Origin: Nibricoccus sp. | GTDB lineage: Bacteria > Verrucomicrobiota > Verrucomicrobiia > Opitutales > Opitutaceae | Reading direction: 5' to 3' | Assembly: GCA_047602425.1 (NCBI GenBank) | Contig: JASGHG010000001.1 | Location: 4,288,001 to 4,352,000, forward strand | Length of the DNA: 64,000 nucleotides | In this document: positions 1,204 to 49,790 of the stretch, piece after piece | Layout of the letters: the number at the start of each line of letters is the position of its first letter | Position numbering within the stretch: position 1 is the stretch's first letter | Translations under genes and position numbers: made by a program | Notes under the pieces: generated by a model | Told to the model about the DNA's origin: nothing | Databases searched by the model: none | Seen by the model: the letters and a program-made list of their open reading frames with translations, nothing else

Positions 1204-1406
1204 GGAGGTCAGAGATCGGACGGAGCACGAAAGAAGAATTTTTGGGAACCGCTAATTTGCGCTCATTGGCGCTAATTGTTTCGGAAGGGTTTTAACCACT
1301 TATAAGCGCTGAGGGACACTGATGACGGAGAGGAATATTTTTGACCGCTCCACCGTAGATGCATCGATTCGATTAAGTGCGCATCAGTGTTCATCAGTGG
1401 TTAAAA
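1204..1406. repeat. Intergenic repeat cluster: RGARGHC heptamers (1204-1220), AACCGCTAAT-type unit (1247-1276) and an inverted pair of 9/10-mer arrays (1290-1323 / 1373-1406)
   Basis: TTTTAACCACTTATAAGCGCTGAGGGACACTGAT is an imperfect inverted repeat of AAGTGCGCATCAGTGTTCATCAGTGGTTAAAA. Confidence 0.8.
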
Positions 1407-1417
1407 GGTTTGGATAT

Positions 1418-2359
1418 TTACTCAGGTTTGGGAAGGCGGGTGGCGCCGGCTTCGCCGAAGGCGAGGAGCGCGCCGTCGGGAGTTTCGAGCAGGGCGGCGA
1501 CGGCGGTGGTGAGGCCGGGGTTCCAGGCGGTGAAGGTGCGACCTTCGTCTTTGCTGACGAAGAAGGCGCGGGCCTGGCCGGCGAGGACGATGGCGCCGTT
1601 TTTCAATTTGATGGCGGCGAGGATCAGCGAAGGTGTGGCGAGCGGAATCGGTTGCCACGTGGCGCCGCGATCTTCGGAACGAAAGACGTGGCCGCGGAGG
1701 CCGAAGGCGAGGACGGCACGGCCGAGATCGAGCGTGCCGAAAAACGAGCCATCGTAGTCGGCGGGCGTGGCGATGAAGGTCGGTTCGGTGCGCGAGGCGC
1801 GGAGCAGGCTCCCGCGTTCGCCGGCGAGGAAGACGGCGTCAGAACCGGAGGCCGCGATGGCGTTGAGGTGCAGGTCTTCGGCGAGGACTTTGTGCGGCGT
1901 CCAAGTGTTGCCGCCATCATTGGTGGCGTAGAATGTACCGAAGGAACCGACGGCCCAGACGCGTTTGGCGTCGAGGGCGAGGACATCGAGAAAGGAGAGC
2001 TTCGGATCGTTAAGCTGCTGAATCCACGTCGCGCCGCCATCTGCGGTGTGCAAAATCGTACCGTCGTGGCCGACGATCCAGCCGTGTTGTTCGTCGGCAA
2101 AGCTGACGCCTGTGAGCGTGGCATGGGCGGGGGAAACGAGCGTTGTCCAAGTCTGGCCGGAGTCGGAAGAGCGGAGGATGCGGCCGCGTTCGCCGACGGC
2201 GAAAATGTTTTTCTGGACGACGGCGGCGTCGAGCAAAAGGCCATTGGCGGTGGCGGCTGGCTCGGCGGCGTGAACGCGGAGGGTGAGCAACAAGACGGTC
2301 GAAAATGAGAGGAAACGTTTCAAGAAACGGAAGGTTGGCCACAAAAGCGCAAAAGGCAC
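1418..2359 (-). CDS. YCF48/BNR (Asp-box) beta-propeller protein
   Basis: Repeated SxDxGxTW Asp-boxes (SSDSGQTW, TADGGATW, TNDGGNTW, SEDRGATW); AVGERG motif; signal peptide; exact start uncertain. Confidence 0.85.
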   Translation of the reverse strand: MPFALLWPTFRFLKRFLSFSTVLLLTLRVHAAEPAATANGLLLDAAVVQKNIFAVGERGRILRSSDSGQTWTTLVSPAHATLTGVSFADEQHGWIVGHDGTILHTADGGATWIQQLNDPKLSFLDVLALDAKRVWAVGSFGTFYATNDGGNTWTPHKVLAEDLHLNAIAASGSDAVFLAGERGSLLRASRTEPTFIATPADYDGSFFGTLDLGRAVLAFGLRGHVFRSEDRGATWQPIPLATPSLILAAIKLKNGAIVLAGQARAFFVSKDEGRTFTAWNPGLTTAVAALLETPDGALLAFGEAGATRLPKPE

Positions 2360-2667
2360 AGGAGGATTTTGGAACCGCTAATTTGATTTTTTAGGAGGAA
2401 ACAGAGGGAGACGGAGGTTTTTTAACCACTTATGTCCACTGAACGGCACTTATGGATGGGGAAGGTCTTTTTAGCCAAGGATGGCATGGATTAACAGGGA
2501 TTGAAGGTGGAGCGCGTTGGCCTCAACGCGCTTGTAACGTCGCCCTAGAACCAGCGCATTGGAGTCAATGCGCTCCACCCTCAAAGCATCGATCGGAATA
2601 AGTGAGCATCAGTGCGCATAAGTGGTTGAGAAATTCATCCGTGCCGATCCGTGGAATCCGTGGTTAA
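2337..2667. repeat. Compound repeat locus: several 9/10-mer array arms surrounding a REPIN-like double hairpin
   Basis: Arms at 2418-2453 / 2598-2627 and 2468-2502 / 2637-2667; remnants at 2337-2363 and 2373-2384; REP pair at 2501-2584. Confidence 0.8.
2501..2584. repeat. REPIN-like element (two inverted GTGG-hairpin REP units)
   Basis: GTGG-AGCGCGTTG-GCCT-CAACGCGCT ... AGCGCATTG-GAGT-CAATGCGCT-CCAC. Confidence 0.7.
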
Positions 2668-2676
2668 GAAGATCGA

Positions 2677-4104
2677 TCAGCGCGTGCCTTCGTTGGCGAG
2701 GGCGGTGGAGGAGAAATCGGAGGGGCTGCGCTTGAGCGAGAAGTCGTAGGCTTTGTGCTCGTTGTTAAGACCGACCACGAGATAGCGGCCGTTGGAAAGG
2801 TCGGTGTGGACTTCGAGTGCGCTCCAAAAGGTCGGGACCTCGTAGTAGTTGATGCAATGTGCCTCGGAGACGCGCCAGAGCACGCCGCGCGTGTCGTATT
2901 GATCGACGGCGAGGATCTGCCACGAGTCCTCGTCGACGTAGAAGGTGCGGCGGGCGTAAAGATGGCTGGAACCGGGCTTGACGGTGGCGTCGACGACCCA
3001 GACGCGGTGGAGCTCGTAGCGGGTGAGATCCTGGTTGATATGAAGTGGTTTCAGTATTTCCGAAATCTTCACTTTGTCGCTATGAAGCTGGTAGGAATTG
3101 TAGGGGACAATCAGTTCCTTTTTGCCGAGCAGTTTCCATTCATAGCGGTCGGGCGCGCCGTTATACATATCGAACTGATCGTTGGTACGCATGCCATCGG
3201 AGGCGGTGCCGGGTTCGTCGTAGGCAACCTTGGGAGCGAGGCGGACACGGCGCTGGCCGGGATTGTAGAGCCAGGCGTGGCGGGCTTCCTTCACCTGGTC
3301 CATCGTCTCATGCACGAGCAGAATCGAGCCGGCGTAGCGGGCGGGAGCGGTGGTGGCCTGCTTGTAATAGATCAGAATGTTTTTGAGATCCTGAGCGGTG
3401 ATGTCGGGGCGGACGTAGTTGAAAAGGAATTCGTCTTCGAACTGAACGAGACTGTAGCTGCCGTTGCGGAGCGGAGCGGCCTGCGCATAGGTGCGCGAAG
3501 CGGCGACCCCGCGGAACCGAACCAGATGATTCCAGATGACCTCGAGGCCGTTTTGAGGAACAGGGAACGGAATACCGACGAGCGCACCCTCGACGTTCGC
3601 GCCATTGTTGGCGAGGCGGGCCGTAGGCGCGATCTGCTTCGTGGCGTCGTAAATGCGTTGGGGATAGGAAGCGGTACGGTGGGTCGGGTAAACAGGGATT
3701 TTGTAATCGGCGTAGGTCTTCAACAATGCGATGTGGCCGGCGGTGAGGCGGCTCTCGTACTGAGCGAGATTGGCGGCCGTGACGGTATAGAGCGACGCCT
3801 CGTCGGCGAACGGCGCGGGATGATGATCGCCAATTTTGTATCCGGCAGGTGGTGTGGTGACGCCACCGTCCCACGCGGGGATGGTGCCATCGGCATTGCC
3901 GGCGCGCTCGGCACCGAGGGGCGTAAGGTCTTGACCGAGGCGGGCGAGGTCGGCGTCGCTGATCGTGGCGTGGGCCAAAGCGGCGGAGGTCAGAAGACAG
4001 AGGCCAGAAGCCAGAAGCCGGAGGACGGAGGTCGGATGCCGGAGGTCGGAGGGATGCTCTTCGGGGCGTGATGAAGACGAATCGGAAGTCGGGGAAATTT
4101 TCAT
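2677..4104 (-). CDS. DUF1329 family periplasmic protein (LolA-like fold)
   Basis: LTPLGAERAGNADGTIPAW, GIPFPVPQNGLEVIWN, AWLYNPGQRRVRLAP, RYELHRVWVV, RTFYVDEDSW motifs. Confidence 0.9.
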   Translation of the reverse strand: MKISPTSDSSSSRPEEHPSDLRHPTSVLRLLASGLCLLTSAALAHATISDADLARLGQDLTPLGAERAGNADGTIPAWDGGVTTPPAGYKIGDHHPAPFADEASLYTVTAANLAQYESRLTAGHIALLKTYADYKIPVYPTHRTASYPQRIYDATKQIAPTARLANNGANVEGALVGIPFPVPQNGLEVIWNHLVRFRGVAASRTYAQAAPLRNGSYSLVQFEDEFLFNYVRPDITAQDLKNILIYYKQATTAPARYAGSILLVHETMDQVKEARHAWLYNPGQRRVRLAPKVAYDEPGTASDGMRTNDQFDMYNGAPDRYEWKLLGKKELIVPYNSYQLHSDKVKISEILKPLHINQDLTRYELHRVWVVDATVKPGSSHLYARRTFYVDEDSWQILAVDQYDTRGVLWRVSEAHCINYYEVPTFWSALEVHTDLSNGRYLVVGLNNEHKAYDFSLKRSPSDFSSTALANEGTR

Positions 4105-27430: not shown

Positions 27431-27527
27431 AAATTTCAAAATTCCAAAATTTCAAAACCCAAAAACAGAAGCGCGTTGGCGCGCAGATTTCCTTTTTTGG
27501 GGTTGGAGTTTTGGCGTTTGGGATTTC
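27431..27527. repeat. Inverted AAATTYC-type 7/8-mer arrays between imuB and dnaE2
   Basis: AAATTTC AAAATTCC AAAATTTC AAAACCC ... GGGGTT GGAGTTTT GGCGTTT GGGATTT. Confidence 0.7.
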
Positions 27528-29011: not shown

Positions 29012-29049
29012 TTTTTTAACCGCTAATTTGCGCTAATGGACGCTAATTT
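29012..29049. repeat. AACCGCTAAT-type 9/10-mer array (single arm) between imuA and imuB
   Basis: TTTTTTAACCGCTAATTTGCGCTAATGGACGCTAATTT; near-identical to 1247-1276. Confidence 0.75.
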
Positions 29050-33405: not shown

Positions 33406-33505
33406 GGTTATGGGTCATGGGTTATGGGTTATGGGTGTGTGTGGCAACCCATCACCTATTTCCAATTTCCGACTGCCCATTACCCCTGACCTATGACCAA
33501 TAACC
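33406..33505. repeat. Empty inverted GGTNATG heptamer arrays
   Basis: GGTTATG GGTCATG GGTTATG GGTTATG ... ACCCATC ACCTATT ... ACCTATG ACCAATA ACC. Confidence 0.85.
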
Positions 33506-33512: not shown

Positions 33513-34406
33513 TCAGGTTAGTTTTTTCAGATATTCGCCGTAGGTGGACTTGCCGAGGAATTTGATCTGAGCGTCGAGTTTAGCGCGATCGACCCAGCCC
33601 TGGCGATAGGCGATTTCTTCCAAACAGGCGATTTTGAGTCCCTGGCGATTTTGGATGACCTCGACGAATTGCGCGGCGTCGAGCAGCGAGTCATGCGTGC
33701 CGGTATCGAGCCAAGCGGTGCCGCGGCCGAGGATTTCGACCTGGAGCTTTCCAGCTTCGAGATAGAGGCGGTTGAGATCGGTGATTTCGAGTTCGCCGCG
33801 TTTCGACGGCTTGAGCGAACGGGCCATGGCGACGACGTCCTTGTCGTAGTAATAGAGACCCGGGACCGCGTAGTTGGATTTTGGATTCGCGGGTTTTTCT
33901 TCGAGCGACAGCACGCGTCCGTCGGAAGCGAATTCGACCACGCCGTAAGCTTTCGCATCGGCCACATGATAGCCGAAGATGGTGGCGCCGCTGGTGCGGT
34001 CGGTCGCGTTTTTCAGCGAGTCGACGAAATCGTGACCGTAGAAAAGGTTATCGCCGAGGACGAGGGCGGAAGGTTCGTTTCCGGTCAGAAAACCCACGTC
34101 GCCCGCGATGGTGAACGCCTGAGCGAGGCCGTCGGGACTGGGTTGTTCGGCAAAGGAAAGCTTCAGGCCGAACTGAGATCCATCGCCAAGAAGGCGTTTG
34201 AACAAAGGCAGATCGGTCGGGGTGGAGATGACGAGGATCTCGCGGATGCCCGAAAGCATCAAAACCGAGAGGGGATAATAGATCATCGGCTTGTCATAAA
34301 CCGGCATGATCTGCTTGGAGACCGCGATGGTCAGGGGGTAAAGACGGGTTCCGGAGCCGCCGGCGAGGATAATACCCCGGCGGAGAGGTGATGGGTTATG
34401 GGTCAT
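33513..34406 (-). CDS. rfbA: Glucose-1-phosphate thymidylyltransferase
   Basis: [48 protein letters not shown]. Confidence 0.97.
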
Positions 34407-34857
34407 GGGTGATGGGTCGTCGGAGGTGATTGGTTACAAGGTGGGTCAGGATGTGGATTGCACCTGATTTTGCTGTGAACGTGCTTTAATGAGAGCGCCA
34501 AGCATGCGACCGATCTCCGCACACTTTGCTTCAAGGACTTGATAGTCTTGTTTAGAAACCAAACTCACAGTTTGGGCGATTTCTAATTGGGTTCGAAGCT
34601 CGGCTAGTGACCCTTTGGCAATATAGAGAAAACGAACTGAATCTTTGTTAGTGTCACGCTCGTCACCTTCAGCGATATTTGATGGAATGCTTATCGCAGA
34701 ACGACGGATTTGATCGCGCAGGCCAAAATCCTTCGAGAGCGAGCCTGAGGACGAAAGCTGGTAAATGTGAACAGCGAGATCTTTGGCGTTTTGCCAGACC
34801 TTGAGTTCACGGAAACCTTGTTCGCCCATAACCAATGACCTATGACCAATAACCTGA
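34387..34857. mobile_element. Putative cassette: four-helix-bundle gene flanked by inverted heptamer arrays
   Basis: GGTNATG array at 34387-34433 and complementary CCNATNA array at 34825-34857; lower-GC cargo gene inserted between rfbB and rfbA. Confidence 0.55.
34446..34829 (-). CDS. Four helix bundle protein (23S rRNA IVS-protein / Avd-like family)
   Basis: FRELKVWQ, DFGLRDQIRRSAISIPSNIAEG, RFLYIAKGSLAELRTQL; ATG 34829 lies in a repeat unit. Confidence 0.92.
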   Translation of the reverse strand: MGEQGFRELKVWQNAKDLAVHIYQLSSSGSLSKDFGLRDQIRRSAISIPSNIAEGDERDTNKDSVRFLYIAKGSLAELRTQLEIAQTVSLVSKQDYQVLEAKCAEIGRMLGALIKARSQQNQVQSTS

Positions 34858-36926: not shown

Positions 36927-37011
36927 TGGTGCCCAAGGGGGGACTCGAACCCCCATGCGGTTAGGCACAGGCTTCTGAGACCTGCGTGTCTACCAATTCC
37001 ACCACCTGGGC
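36927..37011 (-). tRNA. tRNA-Leu(CAG)
   Basis: GCCCAGGTGGTGGAATTGGTAGACACGCAGGT-CTCAGAA-GCCTG...GGTTCGAGTCC...GGGCACCA; long variable arm; encoded CCA. Confidence 0.96.
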
Positions 37012-37109
37012 AATCTGCGGGAGTGCAGAAAACACACACGCTTCCGACGTGGCGCAAGCAAAGAATTTAGGAATACGGACCTTTGCCGCACCGACCTGAC
37101 AACGAAGGC

Positions 37110-37739
37110 TTACTTCTTGTCCTCCGCCTTCATATGGCGGTGAACGAAAAAATAATATACCACGCCCAAAACCACAAATGCCGCCACGGCCCATAGCGTG
37201 ATGCGATGGAGTTCGCCTTTCATGAGCGCTTCGTCCTGTCCGGCCTTGATGCCCAGCCACGCCAGGACGCCGCACCAAAGGCCAGAGCCAAGCAGCGTGT
37301 AAAGTGAGTAGCGACCGAAGGGTAGGCGGACGATGCCAGCCGGGATGCCGATCAAATGCCTTACGACGGGGAGCAATCGCGAAAAAAACACGCCGAAGGA
37401 ACCAAATTTAGCCGCCCAGCGTTCGGCCTTTTCGATTTTCTCAGCGGGAATGAAGAGATATTTTCCGTAACGCATGGCGAGCGGGCGTCCAGCGAGTCGA
37501 GATCCCCAGTACATGACCGCCGCACCGACCCAAGAGCCAATTGTACCGGCTATGATAACACCCCAGACGGACATCGTGCCTTTCGTATAAGCAAGGTGGG
37601 CGGCTGGCGGAATAATCACCTCGCTGGGCAACGGGATGAACGTGCTTTCCATCGCCATGAGCAGGCCTACAAGCCAATAACCACCTTGTTCCAGTTTATC
37701 GGCGTACCATTGAAGAATCTGGGCGAGGTAGGCTTTCAT
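37110..37739 (-). CDS. DedA family membrane protein
   Basis: MESTFIPLPSE, FFSRLLPVVRHLIGIPAG. Confidence 0.92.
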   Translation of the reverse strand: MKAYLAQILQWYADKLEQGGYWLVGLLMAMESTFIPLPSEVIIPPAAHLAYTKGTMSVWGVIIAGTIGSWVGAAVMYWGSRLAGRPLAMRYGKYLFIPAEKIEKAERWAAKFGSFGVFFSRLLPVVRHLIGIPAGIVRLPFGRYSLYTLLGSGLWCGVLAWLGIKAGQDEALMKGELHRITLWAVAAFVVLGVVYYFFVHRHMKAEDKK

Positions 37740-37770
37740 CGGAATATGCGAATGCTCGGGATGACTTAAA

Positions 37771-37807
37771 AATAAAAAAGGCAGGCAGATAGTGCTGCCT
37801 GCCTTTT
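37771..37807 (-). terminator. Rho-independent terminator after the small basic protein gene
   Basis: AAAAGGCAGGCA-N8-TGCCTGCCTTTT hairpin with a T tract on the minus strand. Confidence 0.75.
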
Positions 37808-37824
37808 ACGGAAAGCTTTGTGGC

Positions 37825-37980
37825 TTAGACGTCGGGCTTGGTCTTGCGGAGGCCCTGAACGCGGTCGCCGGCTTTCCACTGGCCACGCTTTTTGAGCAAA
37901 TCGACGCGTTCGAAACGCTTCAGTACGTTGCGCTTAATGACGATACCACTGGAACCTTGGAGACTTTTGTGCTGTGACAT
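37825..37980 (-). CDS. PVC-superphylum signature small basic protein (51 aa)
   Basis: Not in ORF track. MSQHKSLQGSSGIVIKRNVLKRFERVDLLKKRGQWKAGDRVQGLRKTKPDV; HxSL...RNVLKRxER...W...GLxK pattern. Confidence 0.9.
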   Translation of the reverse strand: MSQHKSLQGSSGIVIKRNVLKRFERVDLLKKRGQWKAGDRVQGLRKTKPDV

Positions 37981-38008
37981 GACGTTTTAGAAAAGTGATT
38001 GTGACGTG

Positions 38009-38332
38009 TTAAAGAGGCGCAGACGTACAGTTCGCGCGGGCCCATGACAAGTATTTTTCTGCAACATCTTCACTCCGCACCACCAACCATTCAGGCGTGT
38101 CGTATGGATGGTGCTGTTCCAACCACGCTTTTACCGCGCCCGCACGCGCGGGCAGAAACTTAACCGTCAACCGATATTCTTCGGCGGTTTCAGCCTGACC
38201 TTGCCAGATGTAGTGCGAGAAAATTGGCCCATCAATTTGCACGCAAGCGGCCAGCCGAGCAGCGACAAGACCCTGAGCGAGGCGGCCAGCGTCTTCACGA
38301 TTGCCAACAGTTGTCCAACCAACGAGGAGCAT
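38009..38332 (-). CDS. cutA: Divalent-cation tolerance protein CutA
   Basis: LVAARLAACVQ, SHYIWQG, HPYDTPE. Confidence 0.9.
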   Translation of the reverse strand: MLLVGWTTVGNREDAGRLAQGLVAARLAACVQIDGPIFSHYIWQGQAETAEEYRLTVKFLPARAGAVKAWLEQHHPYDTPEWLVVRSEDVAEKYLSWARANCTSAPL

Positions 38333-38444
38333 GTGGCACCGTCGGCCAGATGACTGCGCGAGGCAAGTTGAGAAATATTGCCCTTGACGGGGAGGGGCTT
38401 AACCTTTGCCCTTCACCTTTTCACCAAAGACAAACGCCCAGCCC

Positions 38445-38654
38445 ATGCGCGACGACTATATCAAAGAAGCACAGAAAGTGATTCCGGACTCGAACCTACT
38501 GATCAACGTGGTCTCCCGCCGTGTTAAGCAGCTGCGTCGTGGCAGCCGCGCGCTGGTAGAATCGCTTGAAAAACTTTCCCCCGAAGACATCGCTCTGCGC
38601 GAAATCATCGAGGGCAAGATCAGCTTCGAGATCGGCGAGGACGTCATCAAATAA
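38445..38654 (+). CDS. rpoZ: RNA polymerase omega subunit
   Basis: LINVVSRRVKQL...IALREIIEGKI; ATG 38445. Confidence 0.85.
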   Translation: MRDDYIKEAQKVIPDSNLLINVVSRRVKQLRRGSRALVESLEKLSPEDIALREIIEGKISFEIGEDVIK

Positions 38655-38727
38655 GGCCGTTTTCGGCGGCGGGTGATTTTCAGTCCAGCTTCGCGCTGAC
38701 CGGGCGCTGCGTCGCCTGACCACAACC

Positions 38728-39210
38728 ATGTCCGCACAAAAAAAAGACCCGGCTCGCTACACGGAGATTCGCAACAGCAAAGCGCTGCGCGACTACTTCG
38801 TGGAGGAAAAGTTCGAAGCGGGCATTGCGCTGAAAGGCACGGAGGTAAAATCCATCCGTGCAGGCAAGGCGCAGATCACCGATGCCTTCGGTCGTTTCGA
38901 AAAAGGCGAGCTGTGGCTGCACAACGCTCACATCGAGGAATACGCATTTGGCAACATCTACAACCACGACAAACGCCGCACCCGCAAATTGCTTCTTCAC
39001 AGCCACCAGATTCGCAAGATCGCGCAAGCGCTGCAAATCGGAGGCCGTGCGCTCATCCCTTTGCGCCTTTATTTTAAAGATGCGCTCGTGAAAGTCGAAG
39101 TCGCGCTTTGCAGCGGCAAAAAACTCTACGACAAACGCGAGGACCTGAAGAAAAGAGTCACCGATCGCGAAATCGACAAGGCGATGAAAGATCGGCGGAA
39201 GTCGAGCTGA
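38728..39210 (+). CDS. smpB: SsrA-binding protein
   Basis: EAGIALKGTEVKSIR, RTRKLLLH, GKKLYDKRE. Confidence 0.97.
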   Translation: MSAQKKDPARYTEIRNSKALRDYFVEEKFEAGIALKGTEVKSIRAGKAQITDAFGRFEKGELWLHNAHIEEYAFGNIYNHDKRRTRKLLLHSHQIRKIAQALQIGGRALIPLRLYFKDALVKVEVALCSGKKLYDKREDLKKRVTDREIDKAMKDRRKSS

Positions 39211-39217
39211 GGATCGG

Positions 39218-39314
39218 CTCGTTCCTCTTTCTCTCTTTATCTTTCTCCCTTTGGTTTCGGTTAAAAACGGGTGTGGAAGAGCGAGGAAATATAAAGAGAA
39301 CGAATAAAGATAGA
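39218..39314. repeat. Inverted pyrimidine/purine hexamer-like arrays between smpB and thrH
   Basis: CTCGTTCCTCTTTCTCTCTTTATCTTTCTC ... GAAGAGCGAGGAAATATAAAGAGAACGAATAAAGATAGA. Confidence 0.6.
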
Positions 39315-39368
39315 CCGCAGGTGCTCCATTCGCTCGACAGCGGCGAAAAACTTTCAACACTCCGCCGC

Positions 39369-39974
39369 GTGAAACAGACGATCGTTACCCTCGACATGGA
39401 AGGCGTGCTCACGCCGGAAATCTGGATTGCCGTGGCTGAAAAGACCGGCATCCCCGAGCTGCGACGCACCACCCGTGACGAACCGGATTACGACAAGCTG
39501 ATGAACGGCCGTCTCGTGCTGCTCGACAAGCACGGCCTGAAACTTTCCGACATTCAAAAGGTCATCGCCTCCCTGCCACTGCTGCCGGGCGCGCGCGAAT
39601 TTCTCGACGAACTCCGTTCGCTCACACAGGTCCTGATTTTGTCCGATACGTTTGAGCAATTTGCCGCGCCCTTGATGCGACAATTGGGCATGCCGACTCT
39701 TTTGTGCCATCGACTGGTTGTGGAAAACGACCGTATCACGGGCTACAAAATTCGTATCCCGGAACAGAAACAAAAAGCCGTCGCGGCCTTCAAGCTGATG
39801 AATTACCGGGTGATTGCCGCGGGCGATTCATTCAACGACACCGCGATGCTGGGCGAGGCCGATGTGGGATTTTTATTCCACGCGCCGCTGAACATCACAC
39901 AGCAGTTTCCGCATTTCCGCGCGCTCGACACCTATCGCGACCTGCTCGACGCGATCAAGGCTCAGTTGACCTGA
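39369..39974 (+). CDS. thrH: Phosphoserine phosphatase / homoserine phosphotransferase
   Basis: LDMEGVLTPEIW, TTRDEPDYD.LM, ILSDTF, AAGDSFND; GTG start 39369. Confidence 0.92.
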   Translation: MKQTIVTLDMEGVLTPEIWIAVAEKTGIPELRRTTRDEPDYDKLMNGRLVLLDKHGLKLSDIQKVIASLPLLPGAREFLDELRSLTQVLILSDTFEQFAAPLMRQLGMPTLLCHRLVVENDRITGYKIRIPEQKQKAVAAFKLMNYRVIAAGDSFNDTAMLGEADVGFLFHAPLNITQQFPHFRALDTYRDLLDAIKAQLT

Positions 39975-40005
39975 GATTGACGGTGCCCTAGACGTGGTGT
40001 TGGGA

Positions 40006-40887
40006 ATGGAAACCAATATCAAAAGCAGAAATAAAATCTGGATTTTCGGGTTGGTGGTGCTGCTGTTGGTTGGCGTTTTTCTGATCCGGGAACTGCAAAA
40101 CGCACGCGATGAAGAAGCTCTGGTGACGAAACAAATTGCGGAGTTGCGCGAGCGAATGGAGAGAGCCACGGCTGTCGTTGCAGGGCAGGCCGATGAGACT
40201 GATACAGTTACTCAGGTACAAAAGCCAGCTGCTAACCGTGCTAACCGGGTCGAGGGAGACGTCTCACATGGCAAAGACCCTGGGTTGGTTATGCTGGCGG
40301 ATCCGGAACTCAGGAAGGCGTACATGGTGGGACAGTACGTTTCGATCGATAAAATGTACGCAGATTTTTTTCAGCGACTCCATTCCACTGGAGGCGACGT
40401 TCGGCGTCTGCGTGAGCTGATAGCGGAGAAGTGGGTTCGGCGCCGAGAAATTTGGGAAGACATCAAGGCACGTGGTTTCGAAGATTCGGCTCAACTCGAT
40501 GTGATGCGCGCAGAGGCTACTGCGGACGTATTGCAGGAGATCGATCAGGTTCTTGGGCCGGAAAACGCGGCAGCATTCCGGCACTACGAAGAAACGGATG
40601 CTCACCGCGGGCATCTCAAAGATCTGAGGGAACTTCTGGCGAATGGACCGTCGGCGCTCGACGATTCGCAGGTGGAGCGCCTGGTGGAATTGTGGTCGAG
40701 TACTGCGAAACCCCTTCATCCGAATCTACGGTACACGGTTCCCGACTCGATGGTGGTCGAGGCCAGTCACTTCCTCACGCGGGCGCAAATGGAAGCGTTG
40801 AGCAAATTTAAGGCCAGCCAACAGGCCAAAGCGGAATACATCGCTCTGAAGCTAGGTGAGGCGCGGTTTAGGAACGGATCCAAATGA
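40006..40887 (+). CDS. Hypothetical membrane-anchored helical protein (paralog A)
   Basis: N-terminal TM, coiled coil, helical C-terminal domain; similar to the next gene. Confidence 0.75.
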   Translation: METNIKSRNKIWIFGLVVLLLVGVFLIRELQNARDEEALVTKQIAELRERMERATAVVAGQADETDTVTQVQKPAANRANRVEGDVSHGKDPGLVMLADPELRKAYMVGQYVSIDKMYADFFQRLHSTGGDVRRLRELIAEKWVRRREIWEDIKARGFEDSAQLDVMRAEATADVLQEIDQVLGPENAAAFRHYEETDAHRGHLKDLRELLANGPSALDDSQVERLVELWSSTAKPLHPNLRYTVPDSMVVEASHFLTRAQMEALSKFKASQQAKAEYIALKLGEARFRNGSK

Positions 40888-41771
40888 AAATGGAGCCACA
40901 GTCCACCGAACCAGTTACCAGGAGTTATTTCCCGAAGCGCGGGGTACTGGTGATTTTGGTGCTGCTTGCGGCTGTTTTTGACGGGATGCTTTTCAACAGG
41001 CTCGGAGGGGCTCGTCGCGAGCGTGAAGAAGCGGCGATGGAATACCGCGAGCTTCAGCGCAAGTTTGAGGAAACGCGCGCGCGCACGCGTACAGTTGCCG
41101 CGCGCTCTGAAAAACTAGCGCCACCGGCGAAGACCGAGCCCATCCCTGCGGCTCCAGAGATTATTTTGGACGAAAGTTTCCCCGGACGCTACGTCGCGAC
41201 GCTCTTGGCGGTGCGAGAAGAAGTGAAATACGGCCGCGCTTTTCGCGCGATGGGCTTCGATGTTGAAACTCAGGCCCGGCTGTATCAATTGCTCGCGGAG
41301 AAAGTGGCGGTTCAGTCCGACTTGCGAGAGATTATGGGCGAACAAGGTATTGACCGGACGACAGCTGAGGGGCGGAAGAAATATTTTTCAGGCTTGCGCG
41401 ACGCAGATGGTAAAATCGAGGCTGAGATCAAAGATTTTCTCGGTGCTGAGAAATACGAGGCATACCGCACCGCGATCGAGCAGCGTGGCGTGTATGACTA
41501 CATTGAAAAGTTGAGTCTGCGGTTGCGTAGCGGCGGTGAGTCACTCAGCGCCGAACAAAATTCAGCTATGCTAGCGATTATCGCCAAAGGCTGCGGAGAC
41601 CCAACGTTCATGCTCATAAATCCGACGTTGCCTGCCGAGGTGATGGAGCAACTTAAAACCACACTCTCCCAAGCGCAGTATAAAGCATTAACCGACATCG
41701 AAAACGAAATGGCTTACTATCGCGCAGGGCAAATGGAAGCACGGCGGCGTATGCAGAACCAAATCCCGTAG
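40884..41771 (+). CDS. Hypothetical membrane-anchored helical protein (paralog B)
   Basis: ATGA overlap with paralog A; same architecture (LLAEK, I..xLG.E, L...Q motifs). Confidence 0.75.
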   Translation: MKMEPQSTEPVTRSYFPKRGVLVILVLLAAVFDGMLFNRLGGARREREEAAMEYRELQRKFEETRARTRTVAARSEKLAPPAKTEPIPAAPEIILDESFPGRYVATLLAVREEVKYGRAFRAMGFDVETQARLYQLLAEKVAVQSDLREIMGEQGIDRTTAEGRKKYFSGLRDADGKIEAEIKDFLGAEKYEAYRTAIEQRGVYDYIEKLSLRLRSGGESLSAEQNSAMLAIIAKGCGDPTFMLINPTLPAEVMEQLKTTLSQAQYKALTDIENEMAYYRAGQMEARRRMQNQIP

Positions 41772-41775
41772 GCAA

Positions 41776-41805
41776 CCGCACGAACTCGGTTGGTTGTTCG
41801 TGCGG
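41776..41805. terminator. Hairpin between convergent genes
   Basis: CCGCACGAAC-N10-GTTCGTGCGG. Confidence 0.55.
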
Positions 41806-41821
41806 GTTTGCACGAGATAGC

Positions 41822-42247
41822 TCAACTCGCCAAAGCGGGTTCGTGCAGCACCGGCCGGGCGTGCTCGGGCCAGTTGCTGATCACGAATTCGGCAAGCTTT
41901 TTCCAGTGGAGCGGCTTGCGCAGGATGCCTTTGAGACCGGGCAGATGTTCGAGTTCGTCGGTGTCGAAGTCGATCGTGCCGCCGGTGATGATCACGGAGT
42001 GGCAGTCGGGAACGAAATGCTGGGCCTGGGCGAGGAATTTCAGTCCGTTCATGCCCGGCATCAAATAGTCGGAGATGATCATGCCCGGATTGAGTTGAGT
42101 GATTTGCTGGAGCGCGGTCTGCGGCGAAGGGAACGTGTAGACAGGGCAGGACAGGTGATTCCGCAGGAGCTGACCGAACGATTCAAGGATCAGCGGTTCG
42201 TCGTCCACGAGGAAGAGAGAACGGCTCGGATGATCTGGAGAAGTCAT
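41822..42247 (-). CDS. Single-domain response regulator
   Basis: LVDDE, ISDYLMPGMNG, ITG, LRKP. Confidence 0.9.
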   Translation of the reverse strand: MTSPDHPSRSLFLVDDEPLILESFGQLLRNHLSCPVYTFPSPQTALQQITQLNPGMIISDYLMPGMNGLKFLAQAQHFVPDCHSVIITGGTIDFDTDELEHLPGLKGILRKPLHWKKLAEFVISNWPEHARPVLHEPALAS

Positions 42248-42354
42248 GGCGTATGTCGTTTTGTTCGTTACGCGCTGTTCTCCGGGGCATCGAGCCAGCG
42301 CTGCGTCTTAATTGTGGCGTTGCATTCGTTGTCTTTATTTAATTACCAAAAAAG

Positions 42355-42819
42355 ATGCTGCACATTACACTTTTTCAACCGGAGATCCCACAAAACACGG
42401 GAAATGTAGGCCGGATGTGTGCGCTAACGAAGACGCGTTTGCATTTGATCCATCCCCTCGGTTTCAAAATCACGGATCGCAATTTGAAGCGCGCGGGAAT
42501 GGATTATTGGTTTTCACTGGATGTTCATGAACACGCTGATTGGAAGGCGTTTATGGCGAGTCCAGCCGCGCCAAAACGGCTTTGGCTTTTCACCACAAAA
42601 GCGACAAAAACGTTCTGGGATGTACGCTTCGAAGACGGTGATGGACTGGTGTTTGGCAATGAAGGTTCGGGTGCGCCGGAATGGCTGCACACAGAAATTG
42701 GAGAATCCCAGCGAGTAACGATTCCCCATGCCAATCCCGCCCTTCGCTCGCTAAACCTAAGCACCGCTGCCGGAATCGCCTGTTACGAGGCATTGCGGCA
42801 AGTGGGAATGCCAGGATGA
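42355..42819 (+). CDS. trmL: tRNA (cytidine/uridine-34 2'-O)-methyltransferase
   Basis: PEIPQNTGN, RAGMDYW, FGNEGSG, RSLNLS. Confidence 0.95.
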   Translation: MLHITLFQPEIPQNTGNVGRMCALTKTRLHLIHPLGFKITDRNLKRAGMDYWFSLDVHEHADWKAFMASPAAPKRLWLFTTKATKTFWDVRFEDGDGLVFGNEGSGAPEWLHTEIGESQRVTIPHANPALRSLNLSTAAGIACYEALRQVGMPG

Positions 42820-42825
42820 AATCTT

Positions 42826-43818
42826 TTAATTAATTTCGTTTACGCGCACGCAAGCGACCTCGCGAGTGGGGTCGGCGGGGATGAGCGGCGGGACGGCGAC
42901 TTTGCATTTTTCCTGCGCGAAGGTGCAGCGCGGATGAAAAGGACAGCCGCGCGGCGGATTGACCGGAGAAGGCGGATCGCCAGGCAGGACGATGCGTTGG
43001 CGAGCGCGCTCGACGTCGGGGTTGGGCGTGGGCACGGCGCTGATCAACGCCTTTGTGTACGGGTGGAGCGGGCGTTCGATCACATCGACGGCTTTGCCGA
43101 GCTCGACGATTTTTCCGAGATACATCACGGCGATGCGGTCGGAAATGTGTTTCACCACGGAAAGATCGTGGGCGATGAAAACAAGGCTGAGCCCCATCTT
43201 TTTCACGAGGCTGGCGAGGAGATTGAGAATTTGTGCCTGGATTGAAACATCGAGCGCGGAAACCGGTTCGTCGGCGACGATCACGCGCGGTTGCAGGGCC
43301 AGGGCGCGGGCAATGGCGATGCGCTGGCGCTGGCCGCCTGAAAATTCGTGCGGGTATTTCCGCATGAAACGGGGCGCGAGGCCGACCAGGGTCATGAGCT
43401 CGGCGACGCGGGCGGGAACCTCCGGGCGTGGACATACTTTGTGGACAAGGAGTGGTTCGGCCAGCGTGGCGAAGACCGTCATGCGCGGGTTGAGCGACGC
43501 GTAAGGGTCTTGGAAAACCATTTGGAGGTGTCGCCGGGCTTCCTGAATTTCGTCGTCGGAGCCCGCGGTGAGATTTTTGCCTTCAAGAACGATCGAGCCT
43601 CCGGTGGTCGGGACGAGTTGAAGGATGGTCCGGGCGAGGGTGGATTTTCCGCAGCCGGATTCGCCGACGAGGCCGAGCACTTCACCGCGTGCGAGCGTGA
43701 GCGTGACGCCATCGACGGCCTTCACCGCGCCATGGTGGCGTTTGACAAGAAAGCCCTTCGTAATCGGGAAGTGCGTCTTGACGTCGGTGAGTTGGAGAAT
43801 GGGCTCGGTGACAGGCAT
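42826..43818 (-). CDS. oppF: Oligopeptide ABC transporter ATP-binding protein (OppF/DppF-like)
   Basis: [41 protein letters not shown]. Confidence 0.9.
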
Positions 43819-43829
43819 CGGAAATTTTC

Positions 43830-44220
43830 TTTAACCACGGATTACACGGACGGGCACGGATACAATCATCGAACAATCCTTTTCCAACGAAGGTCGTTGT
43901 GCTTAAAATTGAGAAGAAGAGCGAGACGAAGGTTAGTTATAGCAAGGTAGCCGATCATTTGGGACACATGCGTGGGGCCGAATTCCTCCACGACTTTTGG
44001 ATCAACAACGACCTGATCGTTGATAATCAAATCGGGTATCAACTTGTCCACAATCTGTCCCTCGTACAGTACATCGAATTGTTTTTGCTGTTCAACTCGG
44101 TGGCCTCGCTTGCCGAGTTCTATCACGAGCGCGTTTTCGTAAGCTTTTTCATTTAGGCCGGGCTCGCTTAGCTCTGCATATAGTATCTTAGCCGTGCTCA
44201 TCCGTGTAATCCGTGTTAAA
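43830..44220. mobile_element. Putative cassette: GxxExxY gene flanked by ~31-bp inverted repeats built from 9/10-mers
   Basis: TTTAACCACGGATTACACGGACGGGCACGGAT vs reverse complement TTTAACACGGATTACACGGATGAGCACGGCT; sits between oppD and oppF. Confidence 0.6.
43866..44201 (-). CDS. GxxExxY protein (PD-(D/E)XK-like); possibly internally deleted
   Basis: PGLNEKAYENALVIEL, PDLII...VVDPK, H.SQMIGYL, LLLNF; ATG lies inside the flanking repeat. Confidence 0.85.
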   Translation of the reverse strand: MSTAKILYAELSEPGLNEKAYENALVIELGKRGHRVEQQKQFDVLYEGQIVDKLIPDLIINDQVVVDPKVVEEFGPTHVSQMIGYLAITNLRLALLLNFKHNDLRWKRIVR

Positions 44221-44228
44221 AAAGAAAG

Positions 44229-45203
44229 CTAGATTTCTCCGGCCTGAACGCGGAGGCAGGCGTGGGGATGATCGGAGTTTTGGGAGGTGAGGGCGGGTGT
44301 TTCGATGTGGCAGCGAGCGATGGCGTATTCGCAGCGGGGAGCAAAGGGGCAGCCGGGGAGCGGCTTGGAAAGATCCGGCGGCAGGCCCGCGATCGTGTAG
44401 AGTTCGGCGCCTTTCGGCTGGAGCGAGGGGATGGAGCGCTGAAGGGCGCGGGTATAGGGATGTTTTGGTTGGTAGAAAAGAGTTCGGGTATCGCCGGTTT
44501 CGACGATGCGGCCGGCGTACATGACTTGCACGCGGTCGCAAAGCCCGGAGATCACGCCGAGATCGTGGGTGATGAAGATCACGGCCATGCCGAGTTCGCG
44601 CTGCATTTTTTTGATGAGTTCGAGGATTTGCGCCTGCACGGTGACATCGAGCGCCGTGGTGGGCTCGTCCGCAATGAGAAGTTCGGGCTTGGTGATGAGA
44701 GCCATGGCAATCATCACGCGCTGACGCATGCCGCCGGAAAACTCGTGGGGGTAGGAATTGATTCGGTTGACGGCGTCATTCACCCCTACGGCGGTGAGCA
44801 TTTCGAGGGCGCGATCGAGGGCAAGTTTGCGGGAAATTTTTTCGTGGATCCGAAGTGGCTCGATGATCTGCTCGGAGATGCGCAGGTACGGATTGAGCGA
44901 CGTCATCGGATCCTGGAAGATCATTGCAATGCGCTTGCCGCGAAGGGCACGGGCTTGTTTCGGCTTACAATGCAGGAGATCGACACCGTCGAAAAAGGCC
45001 GTCCCGCTTTCGATCCGACCGGGCGGCTGCGGAATGAGCCCCATCAACGAATAACAGGTGACGGATTTTCCGCAGCCGGATTCGCCGACGATGCCGAGCG
45101 TTTCGCCGCGATTCAGCTCGAAACTGACGCCGTCCACCGCGCGATAAACGCCGTTGCGCGTGTGGAAATAGGTGCGGAGGTCGTTGACGGCGAGCAAAGG
45201 CAT
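44229..45203 (-). CDS. oppD: Oligopeptide ABC transporter ATP-binding protein (OppD/DppD-like)
   Basis: [44 protein letters not shown]. Confidence 0.9.
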
Positions 45204-45218
45204 GGTGGAGGCAGGCGG

Positions 45219-47204
45219 TTAGAGGCCGGAAGCCAGAGGCCGGAGGTCAGAAGTCGGAGATCGGGAGCCGGAGGCGAGGAGGCGTTGCGTGGCTTCGAGG
45301 ACGGTGGTAGGCGCAAGATCGATGAGCGAGGCGCTGCCGGTTTTAGGGCAATTCGGTGGTTGTAGAATTTCGAAAGGCGCGGAGAAAACAGGGCCGGTAC
45401 GCACTGGATTGGTGGGGCCGAAAAGAGCAAGCAGCGGGACGCCGAGGGCATTGGCGAGATGCATGCCGCCGGTGTCGTTGGTGATCAGCAATCGGCAGGA
45501 GCGAAGTTTCTCAATGTAAGCAGGCAGATTGGTTTTGCCCGCAAGGTCGTGAACGCGTGCGGAATCGAGACCGGCGGCGATGGCCGCGGTGATCGAGCGG
45601 TCGTTGGCGGTTCCCAGGAGGAGAAACTCGGCGTCGGGATGTTTTTCGAGGAGTTGCGCGAGAAGGTTGCGCCAGTGTTCCACGGGCCAGCGTTTTTCCG
45701 GATTGTTTTCCGAACCGGCGATCAGGCCGATGGCGGTCGAGAATCGAAGGTCTTGGAACGAAGGTGCTGCGGGGCTTTGCGATTTGGAACTGGGCGACTG
45801 CGGTTCGCGGAGGAGCGGACCGTCGAGCCCGAAAGCGCGAAGAAAATTTTCCCAAAGTTCGAGCTGGTGATGTTCGCGTTCGTCGAAATTGGCCGGAACG
45901 GCGTAAGTGCGCGTGAGCAACGGGCGATGTTTTCCGGGACGGAGGATGCCGAAGCGCTGGCGACAGCCAGTGAGCCAGGCCTCGAGGTCGCCGCGGAGGG
46001 AATTGGTGAAAAGCAGGTAGATGTCGGGATGGCGTTCGCGAAATTTCCAGAAATGCAGGAAGTAACCGGGACCATGTTGGGGCAGTGCTTCGAGACGGTC
46101 GGCGACCGCCCAGTCTTTTAGCAGCGGGAAAAAGGAGGCTTTGGCGATAAGCGTTATCTCGGCATCGGGCCGGGAGGCGCGGAGGGCGCGAAGGAGCGGA
46201 AGCGCCATGACGACGTCGCCGAGCCAGTTGGGCATGCGGATGAAGAGGCGGGTCTTGTGCGGAACTGTAGCGAGTCCCCGGGAGGCAAGGTCGGCGGCGA
46301 GGAGATTGCGCTTGGATTCGAGGCGCAGACGTTTTTCGGGAATGTCCTGATGGCGCCAGCGGTCGTGGCTCCACAGCCAGGAGGCGCAAAGATTGTCGTC
46401 GGTTGAGAGTTTTGTCTCTAACCAACGGTTTAGGGCGAGCATGGCGCCGGCGGTGGTGCCATCATGGCGGACCTCCTCGGCTTCGAGGCGCAATTTCCAG
46501 AATCCGAGCCTGCGCGGGTAGAACGCCATGATGCGCGCGCCGGAACGTTCGACGAGCATGCCGGAAAGTTCGCTCGTGGAACAAACGCGCCCGAACAGCG
46601 TGGAAAGGGCGCCTTGCAGTCCGGCGTTTTGATCGAAGAGAACGCCAACGACGCCCTTGCGGCGCAAAATGCGAAAGGATTCCGCGAGGCCGTCTTTGCG
46701 CGAGAGCAGGCGCATCCCATGCCGTTCGCGCGTGGCTTTTACCCAGGCGTCGGCGGTAGGATTGTCGAGCGGGCGAAAAATGACGCCGAACTCCGGCATG
46801 GGCACATCCATGAAGAGCCCAAGCGTAGTGAGACTTTCCCAATATGCGATGTGCGGTGCCGCGACAATGAGCGGGTAGGGCTGCGCGTGGTGATCGATAA
46901 AAAACTGCGTGACCTCCGGCGTGGCCGAAGCGATGCGACGAAGACGCGTGTCGGAGATAAATGGCGACGCGAAGGAAAGCAGCGCGGTTTCGACGAAGCG
47001 GCAACTGCTTTGCCGGGCGATCTTCGCCTGCCAAGCGCGAGTGCGTTCTGGGAATGCGTGATCGAGATTGGAAAAAAACAGGCGGCGGCGCCGGCGAAGC
47101 AGGTAAAATATTGCGTGGCCGAGCAACCACGAGAAAGTTCGCAGCAGAAATTGCGGCGTATGGGCGAGCAGCCAACCGATGGATTGGAGAAGAAGTTTAA
47201 GCAC
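45219..47204 (-). CDS. Fusion of a lipid A acyltransferase-like (LpxL/HtrB) domain and a GT9 heptosyltransferase II (WaaF-like) domain
   Basis: N-terminal: PHIAYWE, RPLDNP, LFDQNAG, WLWSHDRW. C-terminal: RMPNWLGDVVM, KRWP, LAGKTNL, TNDTGGMHLA, LFGPT. Confidence 0.85.
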   Translation of the reverse strand: MLKLLLQSIGWLLAHTPQFLLRTFSWLLGHAIFYLLRRRRRLFFSNLDHAFPERTRAWQAKIARQSSCRFVETALLSFASPFISDTRLRRIASATPEVTQFFIDHHAQPYPLIVAAPHIAYWESLTTLGLFMDVPMPEFGVIFRPLDNPTADAWVKATRERHGMRLLSRKDGLAESFRILRRKGVVGVLFDQNAGLQGALSTLFGRVCSTSELSGMLVERSGARIMAFYPRRLGFWKLRLEAEEVRHDGTTAGAMLALNRWLETKLSTDDNLCASWLWSHDRWRHQDIPEKRLRLESKRNLLAADLASRGLATVPHKTRLFIRMPNWLGDVVMALPLLRALRASRPDAEITLIAKASFFPLLKDWAVADRLEALPQHGPGYFLHFWKFRERHPDIYLLFTNSLRGDLEAWLTGCRQRFGILRPGKHRPLLTRTYAVPANFDEREHHQLELWENFLRAFGLDGPLLREPQSPSSKSQSPAAPSFQDLRFSTAIGLIAGSENNPEKRWPVEHWRNLLAQLLEKHPDAEFLLLGTANDRSITAAIAAGLDSARVHDLAGKTNLPAYIEKLRSCRLLITNDTGGMHLANALGVPLLALFGPTNPVRTGPVFSAPFEILQPPNCPKTGSASLIDLAPTTVLEATQRLLASGSRSPTSDLRPLASGL

Positions 47205-48428: not shown

Positions 48429-49697
48429 ATGCTAGACCCAAAGCTCATTCGTGAAACGCCGGACCTCGTCCGCGCAGCCATTGCCAAGAAGCATCTCGAC
48501 GTTGATCTCGATGCCGTGCTCGCCCTCGACGCCGCGTGGCGCAACCAATTGCAAGAGGTCGAAGCGCTTCGCGGCAAACAAAAGGCCGCCAACACCGACA
48601 TGGCCAAGCTCCCGAAAGGTTCGCCGGAGTTCGTCGCCAAGGTGCAGGAGATGAAAGCCGTTTCTGCGCAGGTGAAAGAACGCGAAGGTCAGCTCAAAGA
48701 AACCGAGGATAAATGGAAACAAGCCATGCTCGCGCTGCCCAATCTTCCGCATGCGAGCGTGCCGGAGGGCAAAACCCCGGAGCAGAATGTCGTGTATTCG
48801 ACCCATGGCGACATCGCCAAAGTTTCGCCCGCCGCGAAGCCGCACTTCGATATTCCCGGTTTTGAAAAGTTATTCGATTTTGCGCGTGGCGCGAAAGTCA
48901 CCGGCGCCGGTTTTCCATTCTACGTTGGCGATGGCGCGAAGATCGTGCGCGCCTTGCTTCAGTTCTTCCTCGATGAAGACACCAAGGCGGGCTACGTGGA
49001 GGTGAATCCTCCCATCCTCGTCAACGCCGCCAGCGCTACCGCCACCGGCCAGTTGCCCGACAAGGAAGGGCAGATGTACGAGACAACCGACGATCATTTC
49101 TACGCGGTGCCGACCGCCGAGGTGCCGCTGACGAATTTCTTCCGCGACGAAATTTTGGACGAGAGCGCGCTGCCGGTTTACCGCTGCGCTTACACGCCGT
49201 GTTTCCGCCGCGAGGCCGGCAGTTACGGCAAAGACGTGCGCGGCTTCAACCGTTTGCATCAGTTCGATAAAGTCGAATTGCTCAAATGGGTCCACCCGTC
49301 GACGAGTTACGACGAACTCGATAAATTGCGCAACGACGCCGAGCGCATCCTGCAAAAACTGGAGCTCCCTTACCGCGTGTTGCTCATGTGCGGCGGTGAC
49401 ATCGGTTTTTCCCAGTCGAAGAAATTCGATCTTGAAGTCTGGGCCGCCGGTCAGAAGCGCTGGTTGGAGGTATCGAGTTGTTCAAACTTCGAGGCTTTCC
49501 AGGCGCGCCGCGCGCAAATTCGTTTTCGCGCAAAGGAAACCGGAAAAGTCGAACTCGTCCATACGCTTAACGGTTCCGGCCTCGCGATTCCGCGCGTGCT
49601 GGCTGCGCTGCTCGAAAACAATCTGCAGCCCGACGGCCGCGTGAAGATACCCACCGCGCTCGTGCCGTATTTCGGCAAGGAGTATCTCAGCTTTTGA
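48429..49697 (+). CDS. serS: Serine--tRNA ligase
   Basis: PTAEVPL, FRREAGSYGKD, RLHQFDKVE, EVSSCSN, HTLNGSGLA. Confidence 0.97.
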   Translation: MLDPKLIRETPDLVRAAIAKKHLDVDLDAVLALDAAWRNQLQEVEALRGKQKAANTDMAKLPKGSPEFVAKVQEMKAVSAQVKEREGQLKETEDKWKQAMLALPNLPHASVPEGKTPEQNVVYSTHGDIAKVSPAAKPHFDIPGFEKLFDFARGAKVTGAGFPFYVGDGAKIVRALLQFFLDEDTKAGYVEVNPPILVNAASATATGQLPDKEGQMYETTDDHFYAVPTAEVPLTNFFRDEILDESALPVYRCAYTPCFRREAGSYGKDVRGFNRLHQFDKVELLKWVHPSTSYDELDKLRNDAERILQKLELPYRVLLMCGGDIGFSQSKKFDLEVWAAGQKRWLEVSSCSNFEAFQARRAQIRFRAKETGKVELVHTLNGSGLAIPRVLAALLENNLQPDGRVKIPTALVPYFGKEYLSF

Positions 49698-49718
49698 TCG
49701 CCGATTTCAGCGAAGCGG

Positions 49719-49748
49719 AGGCGACGACCAGGAGTCGTCGCCTTTTTC
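49719..49748 (+). terminator. Rho-independent terminator after serS
   Basis: AGGCGACGAC-cagga-GTCGTCGCCT followed by TTTT. Confidence 0.75.
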
Positions 49749-49755
49749 GTTTTAT

Positions 49756-49790
49756 AATTAGCGCCAATTAGCGTTCATTCGTGGTTGAAA
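49756..49790. repeat. AACCRC/GCTAAT-type 9/10-mer array arm upstream of tilS
   Basis: Reverse complement TTTCAACCACGAATGAACGCTAATTGGCGCTAATT; related to 1247-1276 and 29012-29049. Confidence 0.7.

Follow-up and report, generated by a model that had tools for sequence, protein, structure and literature searches.

The inverted short-tandem-repeat cassettes analysed here, which lie with or without a cargo gene at gene junctions of a 64,000-nucleotide stretch of Nibricoccus sp. DNA (assembly GCA_047602425.1, contig JASGHG010000001.1, positions 4,288,001 to 4,352,000; the whole stretch is called the window), have parts in common with several described systems. The intervening sequences (IVSs) with an open reading frame (ORF) in the 23S rRNA of Coxiella and Leptospira carry the S23p gene, and that of Coxiella combines it with heptamer repeats and an RNase III cut (PMC4990558). 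In REPIN/RAYT systems, i.e. doublets of repetitive extragenic palindromic (REP) sequences with REP-associated tyrosine transposases, a long-resident and mostly vertically inherited gene has its own flanking inverted repeats, many extragenic doublets carry no gene, and each repeat family has one gene (PMC8049555, PMC5581495, PMC3733652). Heptamer arrays were also published without a partner gene, namely GGGAATC in Xanthomonas (186 copies; PMC4692102) and TAACTGA in Beggiatoaceae (PMC4679880), and the term 'helix bundle' is absent from the main texts of both papers. The cassettes treated here form a real and widespread class, which has parts in common with the rRNA IVSs and its population logic in common with REPIN/RAYT, and is a member of neither.

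Two cassettes of the window are filled. In the first, a four-helix-bundle (FHB) gene (TIGR02436, PF05635; 34446..34829, minus strand, GC 0.47) lies between a downstream arm of GGTCAT heptamers at 34387..34417, which contains the only in-frame rfbA start codon and is therefore translated, and an upstream arm at 34825..34857, which begins 4 bases past the rfbB stop and holds the start codon of the cargo gene. In the second, a GxxExxY gene (TIGR04256, PF13366; 43866..44201, minus strand, GC 0.46), of which the first helix is missing, is enclosed by a downstream arm of CACGGAT 9-mers at 43830..43860 and an upstream arm at 44190..44220, again with the cargo start codon inside. With flanks at GC 0.57-0.60, both are the small, AT-richer, operon-oriented genes that the original prediction, made from the sequence alone, had described. 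Its nine array-bearing junctions were all recovered, each between co-directional genes, and two single arms (45208-45274 and 3986-4052) had been overlooked. Seven of the nine sites are inverted pairs, the single arms being those at 29012-29049 and 49756-49790; the arms of such pairs are able to fold, the pair at 39218-39314 not exceeding its shuffles (z 0.26). The predicted absence of a target-site duplication was borne out, the longest direct repeats between site ends being 4-5 bases or pieces of arms. The flanks are protein-coding genes, Rfam matches in the window are limited to two tRNAs, and promoters showed no excess over shuffles across 32300-45400.

The source genome (G000; one contig, C1, of 5.16 Mb, which includes the window) was surveyed using a simple purpose-made gene caller, on whose calls the split into coding and non-coding DNA rests. 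An unbiased detector of arrays with period 7-10 returned 157 arrays from non-coding DNA, against 11, 9 and 18 in three shuffles. Cargo genes comprised 5 TIGR02436 and 5 TIGR04256 matches, of which 9/10 were operon-oriented and boxed by inverted arrays, each with its own different motif; when every ORF of 210-1500 bases was checked for periodic arms facing inward, these two gene families alone came up. Patterns taken from the arms of the cargo genes, and hence circular for family counts, matched 185 non-coding arms and 36 inward pairs. Most gene-less array families have a cargo gene with matching arms, and both window cargo families occur without a gene as had been claimed, GGTCAT at about 13 sites of G000 and CACGGAT as an arm at 2337..2667. 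Operon-internal placement applies to the nine window sites; genome-wide, arms lie in co-directional (145), convergent (27) and divergent (13) gaps, the last being depleted (p 4e-7). No HUH (Y1) transposase was met between repeats of G000, Y1 matches lying elsewhere, and its single reverse transcriptase (RT) match (C1:925276-925902) is a group II intron maturase that adjoins no listed FHB gene.

The match between repeat type and cargo type was followed in three further sets, all counted without dereplication: 30/247 GxxExxY and 29/287 FHB matches from 61 genomes of the host family; the best 80 of at least 554 metagenomic FHB relatives, 9 of which lay too close to a contig end; and, from named genomes, the 80 top-ranking among at least 520 GxxExxY relatives (1 dropped), spanning Verrucomicrobiota, Planctomycetota, Chloroflexota, Acidobacteriota, Cyanobacteria, Bacteroidota and archaea. 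Arms above the shuffle control flanked 84/105 FHB and 94/114 GxxExxY genes. Across host GC contents of 0.31-0.73, the period was 7 in 73/84 FHB cases, and in the GxxExxY cases 8-11 in 90/94 and 7 in 2/94, so that the predicted matching of repeat and cargo stands as a strong rule with a few exceptions. Motif similarity rose with protein identity where the two genes compared had different flanks (rho 0.39 and 0.31, Mantel p 0.002), and FHB clades have heptamer types in common. Over the 61 genomes, related members of which are not independent data points, partial rho was 0.46 for GxxExxY with 9/10-mers and 0.35 for FHB with heptamers, against 0.07 for FHB with 9/10-mers and 0.09 for GxxExxY with heptamers. 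Array density was 0.9 in genomes lacking GxxExxY versus 10.0 arrays per Mb, the reversed-pattern control for such densities matching other real heptamer families and so being no clean null. One genome with 7 FHB and no GxxExxY genes (G036) had 0.3 9/10-mer matches per Mb, and one with 5 GxxExxY and no FHB genes (G067) had 1.0 heptamer match per Mb. The window heptamer GGTCAT was matched in 10/61 genomes, and the three richest in it after G000 all belong to the five genomes whose FHB match is best. Gene-less density thus tracked the cognate family in the genome-wide scan that had been proposed, with G007 as an exception. FHB genes were also found in 28 plasmid records; three of these were inspected, two with both arms and one with the downstream arm alone. 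Phage records gave no GxxExxY match, and none of 84 scanned IMG/VR loci with GGGAATC or TAACTGA arrays held a cargo gene.

Alignment of the same junctions in relatives, as also suggested beforehand for rfbB-rfbA and oppD-oppF, returned empty, filled, bare and swapped states. The opp ATPase junction is filled in G000 alone among 16 syntenic loci (L017 dropped), the others having empty pairs, single arms, or bare or overlapping genes. At rfbB-rfbA, 10/29 loci are filled, 5 were judged by eye to be empty pairs (9/10-mer types included) and 14 are bare or otherwise (L107 dropped); the filled state is scattered on the rfbA tree (9 changes vs 8.4 shuffled), and the sister rfbA genes L100 and L109 carry FHB genes from different clades. 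Among congeners, gyrB-gyrA has an empty heptamer pair, a filled FHB cassette, an empty 9-mer pair and, twice, a bare junction. Depending on the genome, gatA-gatB, pheS-pheT and gyrB-gyrA hold a GxxExxY or an FHB gene, and one FHB clade (75-84% identity) is found at all three. serS-tilS is not such a hot junction, an arm being present, by eye, in G000 only among 25 syntenic loci. Presence/absence variation and association of cargo with repeat family were thus both found, and the filled and empty forms claimed originally do exist at the same junctions together with single-arm, bare and swapped alleles; the mobility claimed along with them is inferred from this turnover.

In 35 same-junction cargo pairs, whose selection at >=68% identity biases pN downward, pS was 0.75 and pN 0.16, versus 0.52 and 0.13 in the flanks; since the synonymous distance of the cargo is not below that of the flanks, no recent transfer was seen. 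The filled cassettes are old residents under purifying selection and turnover events are rare; the compared junctions yielded no young insertion whose breakpoint was clean. Decaying copies occur, with stop codons in the cargo genes L086 and L087. FHB cassettes L107/L070 (G031) and L524 are interrupted or shortened by apparent insertion sequences. Separately, imuB matches of three genomes (L125, L126, L128 with L134-L136) are split in two, 100-160 bases apart in one open frame, which suggests an in-frame insertion.

Both cargo families had been taken to be of unknown function, and PF13366 is listed as such (PMC3424549). For GxxExxY there is a clue. D69 and K81 are invariant and E79 is present in at least 90% of the 31 aligned rows, the structure model (pLDDT 96) has a PD-(D/E)XK fold, and the protein is a predicted member of that nuclease superfamily by both fold and catalytic residues. 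Among neighbours of the model, Cas4 SSO0001 (Z 8.3, rmsd 3.6, 99 aligned), BpuSI (8.0) and Hjc (7.2) tie, so that by the model none of Cas4, type II restriction enzymes and Hjc stands out as the nearest family. Foldseek gave no GxxExxY match at E<=0.001, the Atlas search nothing beyond PF13366, and PADLOC weak Cas4 and PDC-S02 matches only. The description 'transposase-free' consequently does not mean enzyme-free. The window copy lacks the N-terminal helix that 30/30 aligned relatives have and is probably decaying; intact GxxExxY genes of G000 include those at C1:1210070-1210450 and 1622093-1622485. For the FHB protein the earlier statement stands: we know of no catalytic site, and this is the main gap in the mechanism proposed below. 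The window FHB matches PF05635 with 132 bits (cut-off 33.8), and in the PDB 2GSC (XCC0516, the best match) and 2RLD, five chains each. Its relation to Avd is weaker, with scores under the Avd cut-offs; FHB-Avd homology is stated in PMC10053308.

Compared with the described systems, the FHB cassette resembles the 23S rRNA IVS in its PF05635 protein, the heptamers before the ORF, the terminal inverted stem and the patchy distribution (PMC4990558). It differs in that the cassettes lie between protein-coding genes at many sites, also involve a further gene family and numerous copies without a gene, bear no sign of selection on an RNA stem, and have arms that overlap stop and start codons of host genes. 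The features of REPIN/RAYT given at the outset are all shared, and gene-less inverted doublets here follow the cognate resident gene, G007, G034 and G042 being exceptions. In contrast, no HUH transposase is involved, loops are not common to copies, and the arms are tandem units of 7-11 bases, not one palindrome with a GTAG/CGTC tag (PMC3733652). Diversity-generating retroelements share the homologous four-helix-bundle pentamer fold of Avd (PMC10053308), but the cassettes adjoin no RT or template repeat. Miniature inverted-repeat transposable elements and insertion sequences are set apart by the missing target-site duplication and by the lack of a near-identical interior among copies here. Free-standing homing endonucleases are small nuclease genes with fidelity to conserved loci and a cycle of filled, decayed and lost states. 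The small nuclease-fold gene, the site fidelity and the three states recur here, with no recent transfer seen; the repeat arms, the gene-less copies, the non-enzymatic second cargo and the lack of a visible conserved target sequence in bare alleles do not fit.

The orphan heptamers are alike in their roughly four units, with the purine-rich strand after stops and its complement before starts, in inverted pairs such as that at groES-groEL, and in their rarity between divergent genes (PMC4692102, PMC4679880); they differ in having been published without a partner gene. An overlap between GGGAATC and the start of XCC0516 had been predicted beforehand, and repeat 15, six bases past the bccP stop, overlaps that start (supplement 2 of PMC4692102). 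The supplement lists no inverted partner for this array, and we noticed no remark on the overlap in that paper. No publication was found that ties FHB or GxxExxY genes to cognate arrays outside rRNA, in a search that left subscription journals and bioRxiv supplements uncovered. New here are the complete-genome census, the dissociation of cognate genes and arrays, the RNA-stem test and the XCC0516 link.

The explanation that we favour, with a confidence that is evenly balanced, is a persistent family of two-part DNA elements, similar to REPIN/RAYT and run by unrelated proteins. A master cassette would consist of a small gene with an inward-facing array of a short unit on either side. The cargo protein would recognise its own unit as repeated DNA sites, FHB with a 7-base period and GxxExxY through CRCNRAG cores spaced 8-11 bases apart, roughly a helical turn. 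Masters would reside long at one operon junction and be expressed from the host transcript; they would avoid polarity by having the cargo start codon in the upstream arm and the start of the following gene at or within the downstream arm. Acting in trans, each cargo protein would on rare occasions cause arm pairs without a gene, and still less often filled cassettes, to be written into further intergenic gaps, in many cases in place of an older family. GxxExxY might supply the cut itself, and FHB might be the recogniser for some separate enzyme. Upstream arms would be lost more often than downstream arms, which may double as a C-rich, G-poor translation-start region in a host without a Shine-Dalgarno signal.

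The wider proposition is held more tentatively, and we would sooner doubt than affirm it in full: FHB and GxxExxY proteins may be sequence-specific drivers of transposase-free persistent mobile repeats in many bacterial phyla and some archaea, each spreading its own tandem-array doublets into operon junctions, with the orphan heptamers of Xanthomonas, cyanobacteria and Beggiatoaceae as gene-less products and the ORF-bearing rRNA IVSs as copies that landed in rRNA genes. FHB would then be a candidate partner for long-known orphan bacterial repeats, and one testable object would join the function of TIGR02436 and TIGR04256, two small and very common families, the origin of the heptamers and 9/10-mers, and the spread of rRNA IVSs. 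As the predicted binding site lies on each gene's own flanks, specificity is directly testable, and thousands of natural protein-motif pairs would amount to a recognition code. In the essential genes gyrA, gatB, pheT, tpiA and rfbA, the cassettes also alter the translation-start region and the N-terminus.

Several observations weigh against the favoured explanation. The loops of 19 empty pairs were matched elsewhere in G000 only via nested arms or REP-like words, and such unique loops are not predicted by plain copy-and-paste for young copies. Three G000 families (AACGCT, AGAATG and a 6-mer) had no cognate gene found, and the FHB gene at C1:4665768-4666094 has no arm pair. GxxExxY pairs above 70% identity share the junction in 20/21 cases, so that movement of filled cassettes must be rare. 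The motif-protein correlation could follow from co-inheritance alone, and the genomes compared include kin that do not count as independent. G007 is a clear exception, with 35 heptamer matches per Mb and no FHB found; G034 has an FHB 72% identical to that of the window and only 1 motif match, G042 has 5 motif matches and no closely related FHB, and in G070 the arms of the best FHB are of the sister motif. Paired arms resemble each other more in register (0.84) than when shifted (0.66), and linkers of paired arms are concordant in one family (p 0.02) and not in two, which together point to some pairing or conversion between arms. Neither binding nor cleavage nor movement was observed.

If the proteins were domesticated regulators that bind the arms as DNA or mRNA and tune downstream read-through or translation, the arrays would be a host-selected regulon and not mobile. 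A repeat-binding regulator was proposed in PMC4679880, and the purifying selection and long residence of the cargo, the excess of start-adjacent over stop-adjacent single arms at co-directional junctions of G000 (54 vs 18), the retention of an arm before imuB in G000 and G004, and a host without enrichment of Shine-Dalgarno sequences before predicted starts (6.8% vs 5.5% background) would all suit such a role. It is rather unlikely as the whole explanation, as congeneric genomes swap families at one junction (pgk-tpi has four families in five genomes), the target genes have no evident common pathway, and the inverted-arm boxing of the gene and the nuclease fold of one protein are left unexplained. 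It can coexist with the favoured two-part element, as the reason for persistence. Movement of filled cassettes alone, by horizontal transfer or homing-like recombination via conserved flanks, would make empty pairs and single arms the scars of gene loss. The fidelity of cargo clades to their sites, the decaying copies (the deletion in the window GxxExxY gene and the stop codons in L086 and L087), the unique loops and the unlike FHB genes of L100 and L109 agree with this. Across 176 array clusters of G000, however, no cargo remnant was found beyond the known genes, each of the about 13 GGTCAT sites would require a past copy of what is now a single gene, and the synonymous distances gave no sign of recent transfer, so that we consider scars an unlikely account.

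An RNA-processing role, as contained in the original prediction, would treat the cassettes as mRNA IVSs, with the paired arms as an RNA stem that is cleaved by RNase III or by the cargo protein. The arms are able to fold, and the Coxiella IVS combines an S23p gene, heptamers, a 28-bp stem and an RNase III cut (PMC4990558). Mismatches between arms fall at linker positions, and on the transcript strand G-U vs A-C counts were 32:47, 62:80, 115:97 and 76:109 in four sets (the first two overlap in the filled cassettes of G000), without a G-U excess; terminators as reference gave 38 G-U vs 10 A-C, against 32 vs 47 in arms (p 2e-5). The mismatches instead track the replication strand, with G-T mismatches of paired G000 arms at 69 vs 25 for the leading strand and A-C at 53:12 where the sense strand is lagging. 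Strand-biased mutation and hairpin selection on the lagging-strand template could each account for 69:25. When folded on both strands, the empty pairs at rfbA and imuB fold better antisense, and 70/102 co-directional junctions have one arm only. Several filled alleles of rfbB-rfbA have an upstream arm that runs over the rfbB stop, and their rfbA start is found inside the downstream arm or ahead of it and in some cases overlaps the cargo stop; where this start lies within the arm, excision would remove the rfbA start codon from the mRNA. RNA excision as a function is unlikely from these sequences, the mRNA-IVS account as a whole is very improbable, and RNA cuts at the stems might occur as a side effect. 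Most improbable is that a RAYT/IS200-type transposase or an RT moves the arrays in trans with the cargo genes as passengers. The co-occurrence test named beforehand gave a rho of 0.38 between Y1 count and 9/10-mer density over the 61 genomes, a REP-like doublet is nested at 2506-2579, and FHB is related to Avd. Against this, 14 Y1 matches in G065 go with about 1 array per Mb, G009, G042, G051 and G056 have 21-51 array matches and no Y1 match, no RT was found in 3/4 FHB-rich genomes searched (the one in G000 being the maturase mentioned above), no 5'-truncated cargo fragments, as expected of retro-copying, stood next to single arms among the 176 clusters, and a passenger would have no need of a matched motif. 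The array pattern is not accounted for by Y1 transposases.

The remaining window sites carry no cargo gene. The composite site at 1203..1405 consists of an inverted pair of CACTGAT-type 10-mers (about 1290-1323 and 1374-1405) and three single arms (a CGCTAAT 10-mer, a CACGAAAG-type and a GAGGTC-type heptamer arm), which come after the pair in the direction of the downstream start codon. A second composite site at 2337..2667 has upstream-side arms of CACGGAT 9-mers and CACTGAT 10-mers and stacked downstream-side arms; the REP-like doublet at 2506-2579, a separate family whose end word has 15 copies in G000, sits inside the loop of the CACTGAT pair. A single GAGGCC-type heptamer arm at 3986..4052 lies in frame at the 5' end of a DUF1329 gene (2677-4104, minus strand), within its signal-peptide-like N-terminal part, and is repeat DNA turned into protein sequence; another at 45208..45274 directly precedes the first opp ATPase gene. 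Empty inverted pairs are found at imuB-dnaE2 (AAATCC-type 7/8-mer, 27431..27527) and at the rfbA-glycosyltransferase junction (GGTCAT-type heptamer, 33406..33505). A single CGCTAAT 10-mer arm stands directly before the imuB start (29012..29049), where G004 has a sister-motif arm at the same position, and a CGCTAAT-type arm at 49756..49790 lies between a short hairpin 3' of serS and the tilS start. The weakest of the nine sites is the empty pair of a 6-mer-type family at 39218..39314 (smpB-thrH), for which no cognate gene was found in G000. Its purine polarity is reversed, the upstream arm being pyrimidine-rich, opposite to the other families, and similar arrays occur in L124-L126.

Elsewhere in G000, the FHB gene at C1:4665768-4666094 has a C-terminal extension and a short 8-mer-like stretch upstream. 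A preference of arrays for lagging-strand operons (p 0.06) was dropped. The last bases before the ATG of predicted starts are C-rich. Some host genes are flanked by outward-facing arms that belong to one family, at C1:2141895-2143945, at 3373047-3373394, in fliP-fliQ-fliR and on both sides of rfbA, so that neighbouring junctions in runs share one family. Armed junctions are concentrated in C1:4160000-4680000, which includes the window, with 7 clusters vs 2.2 expected.

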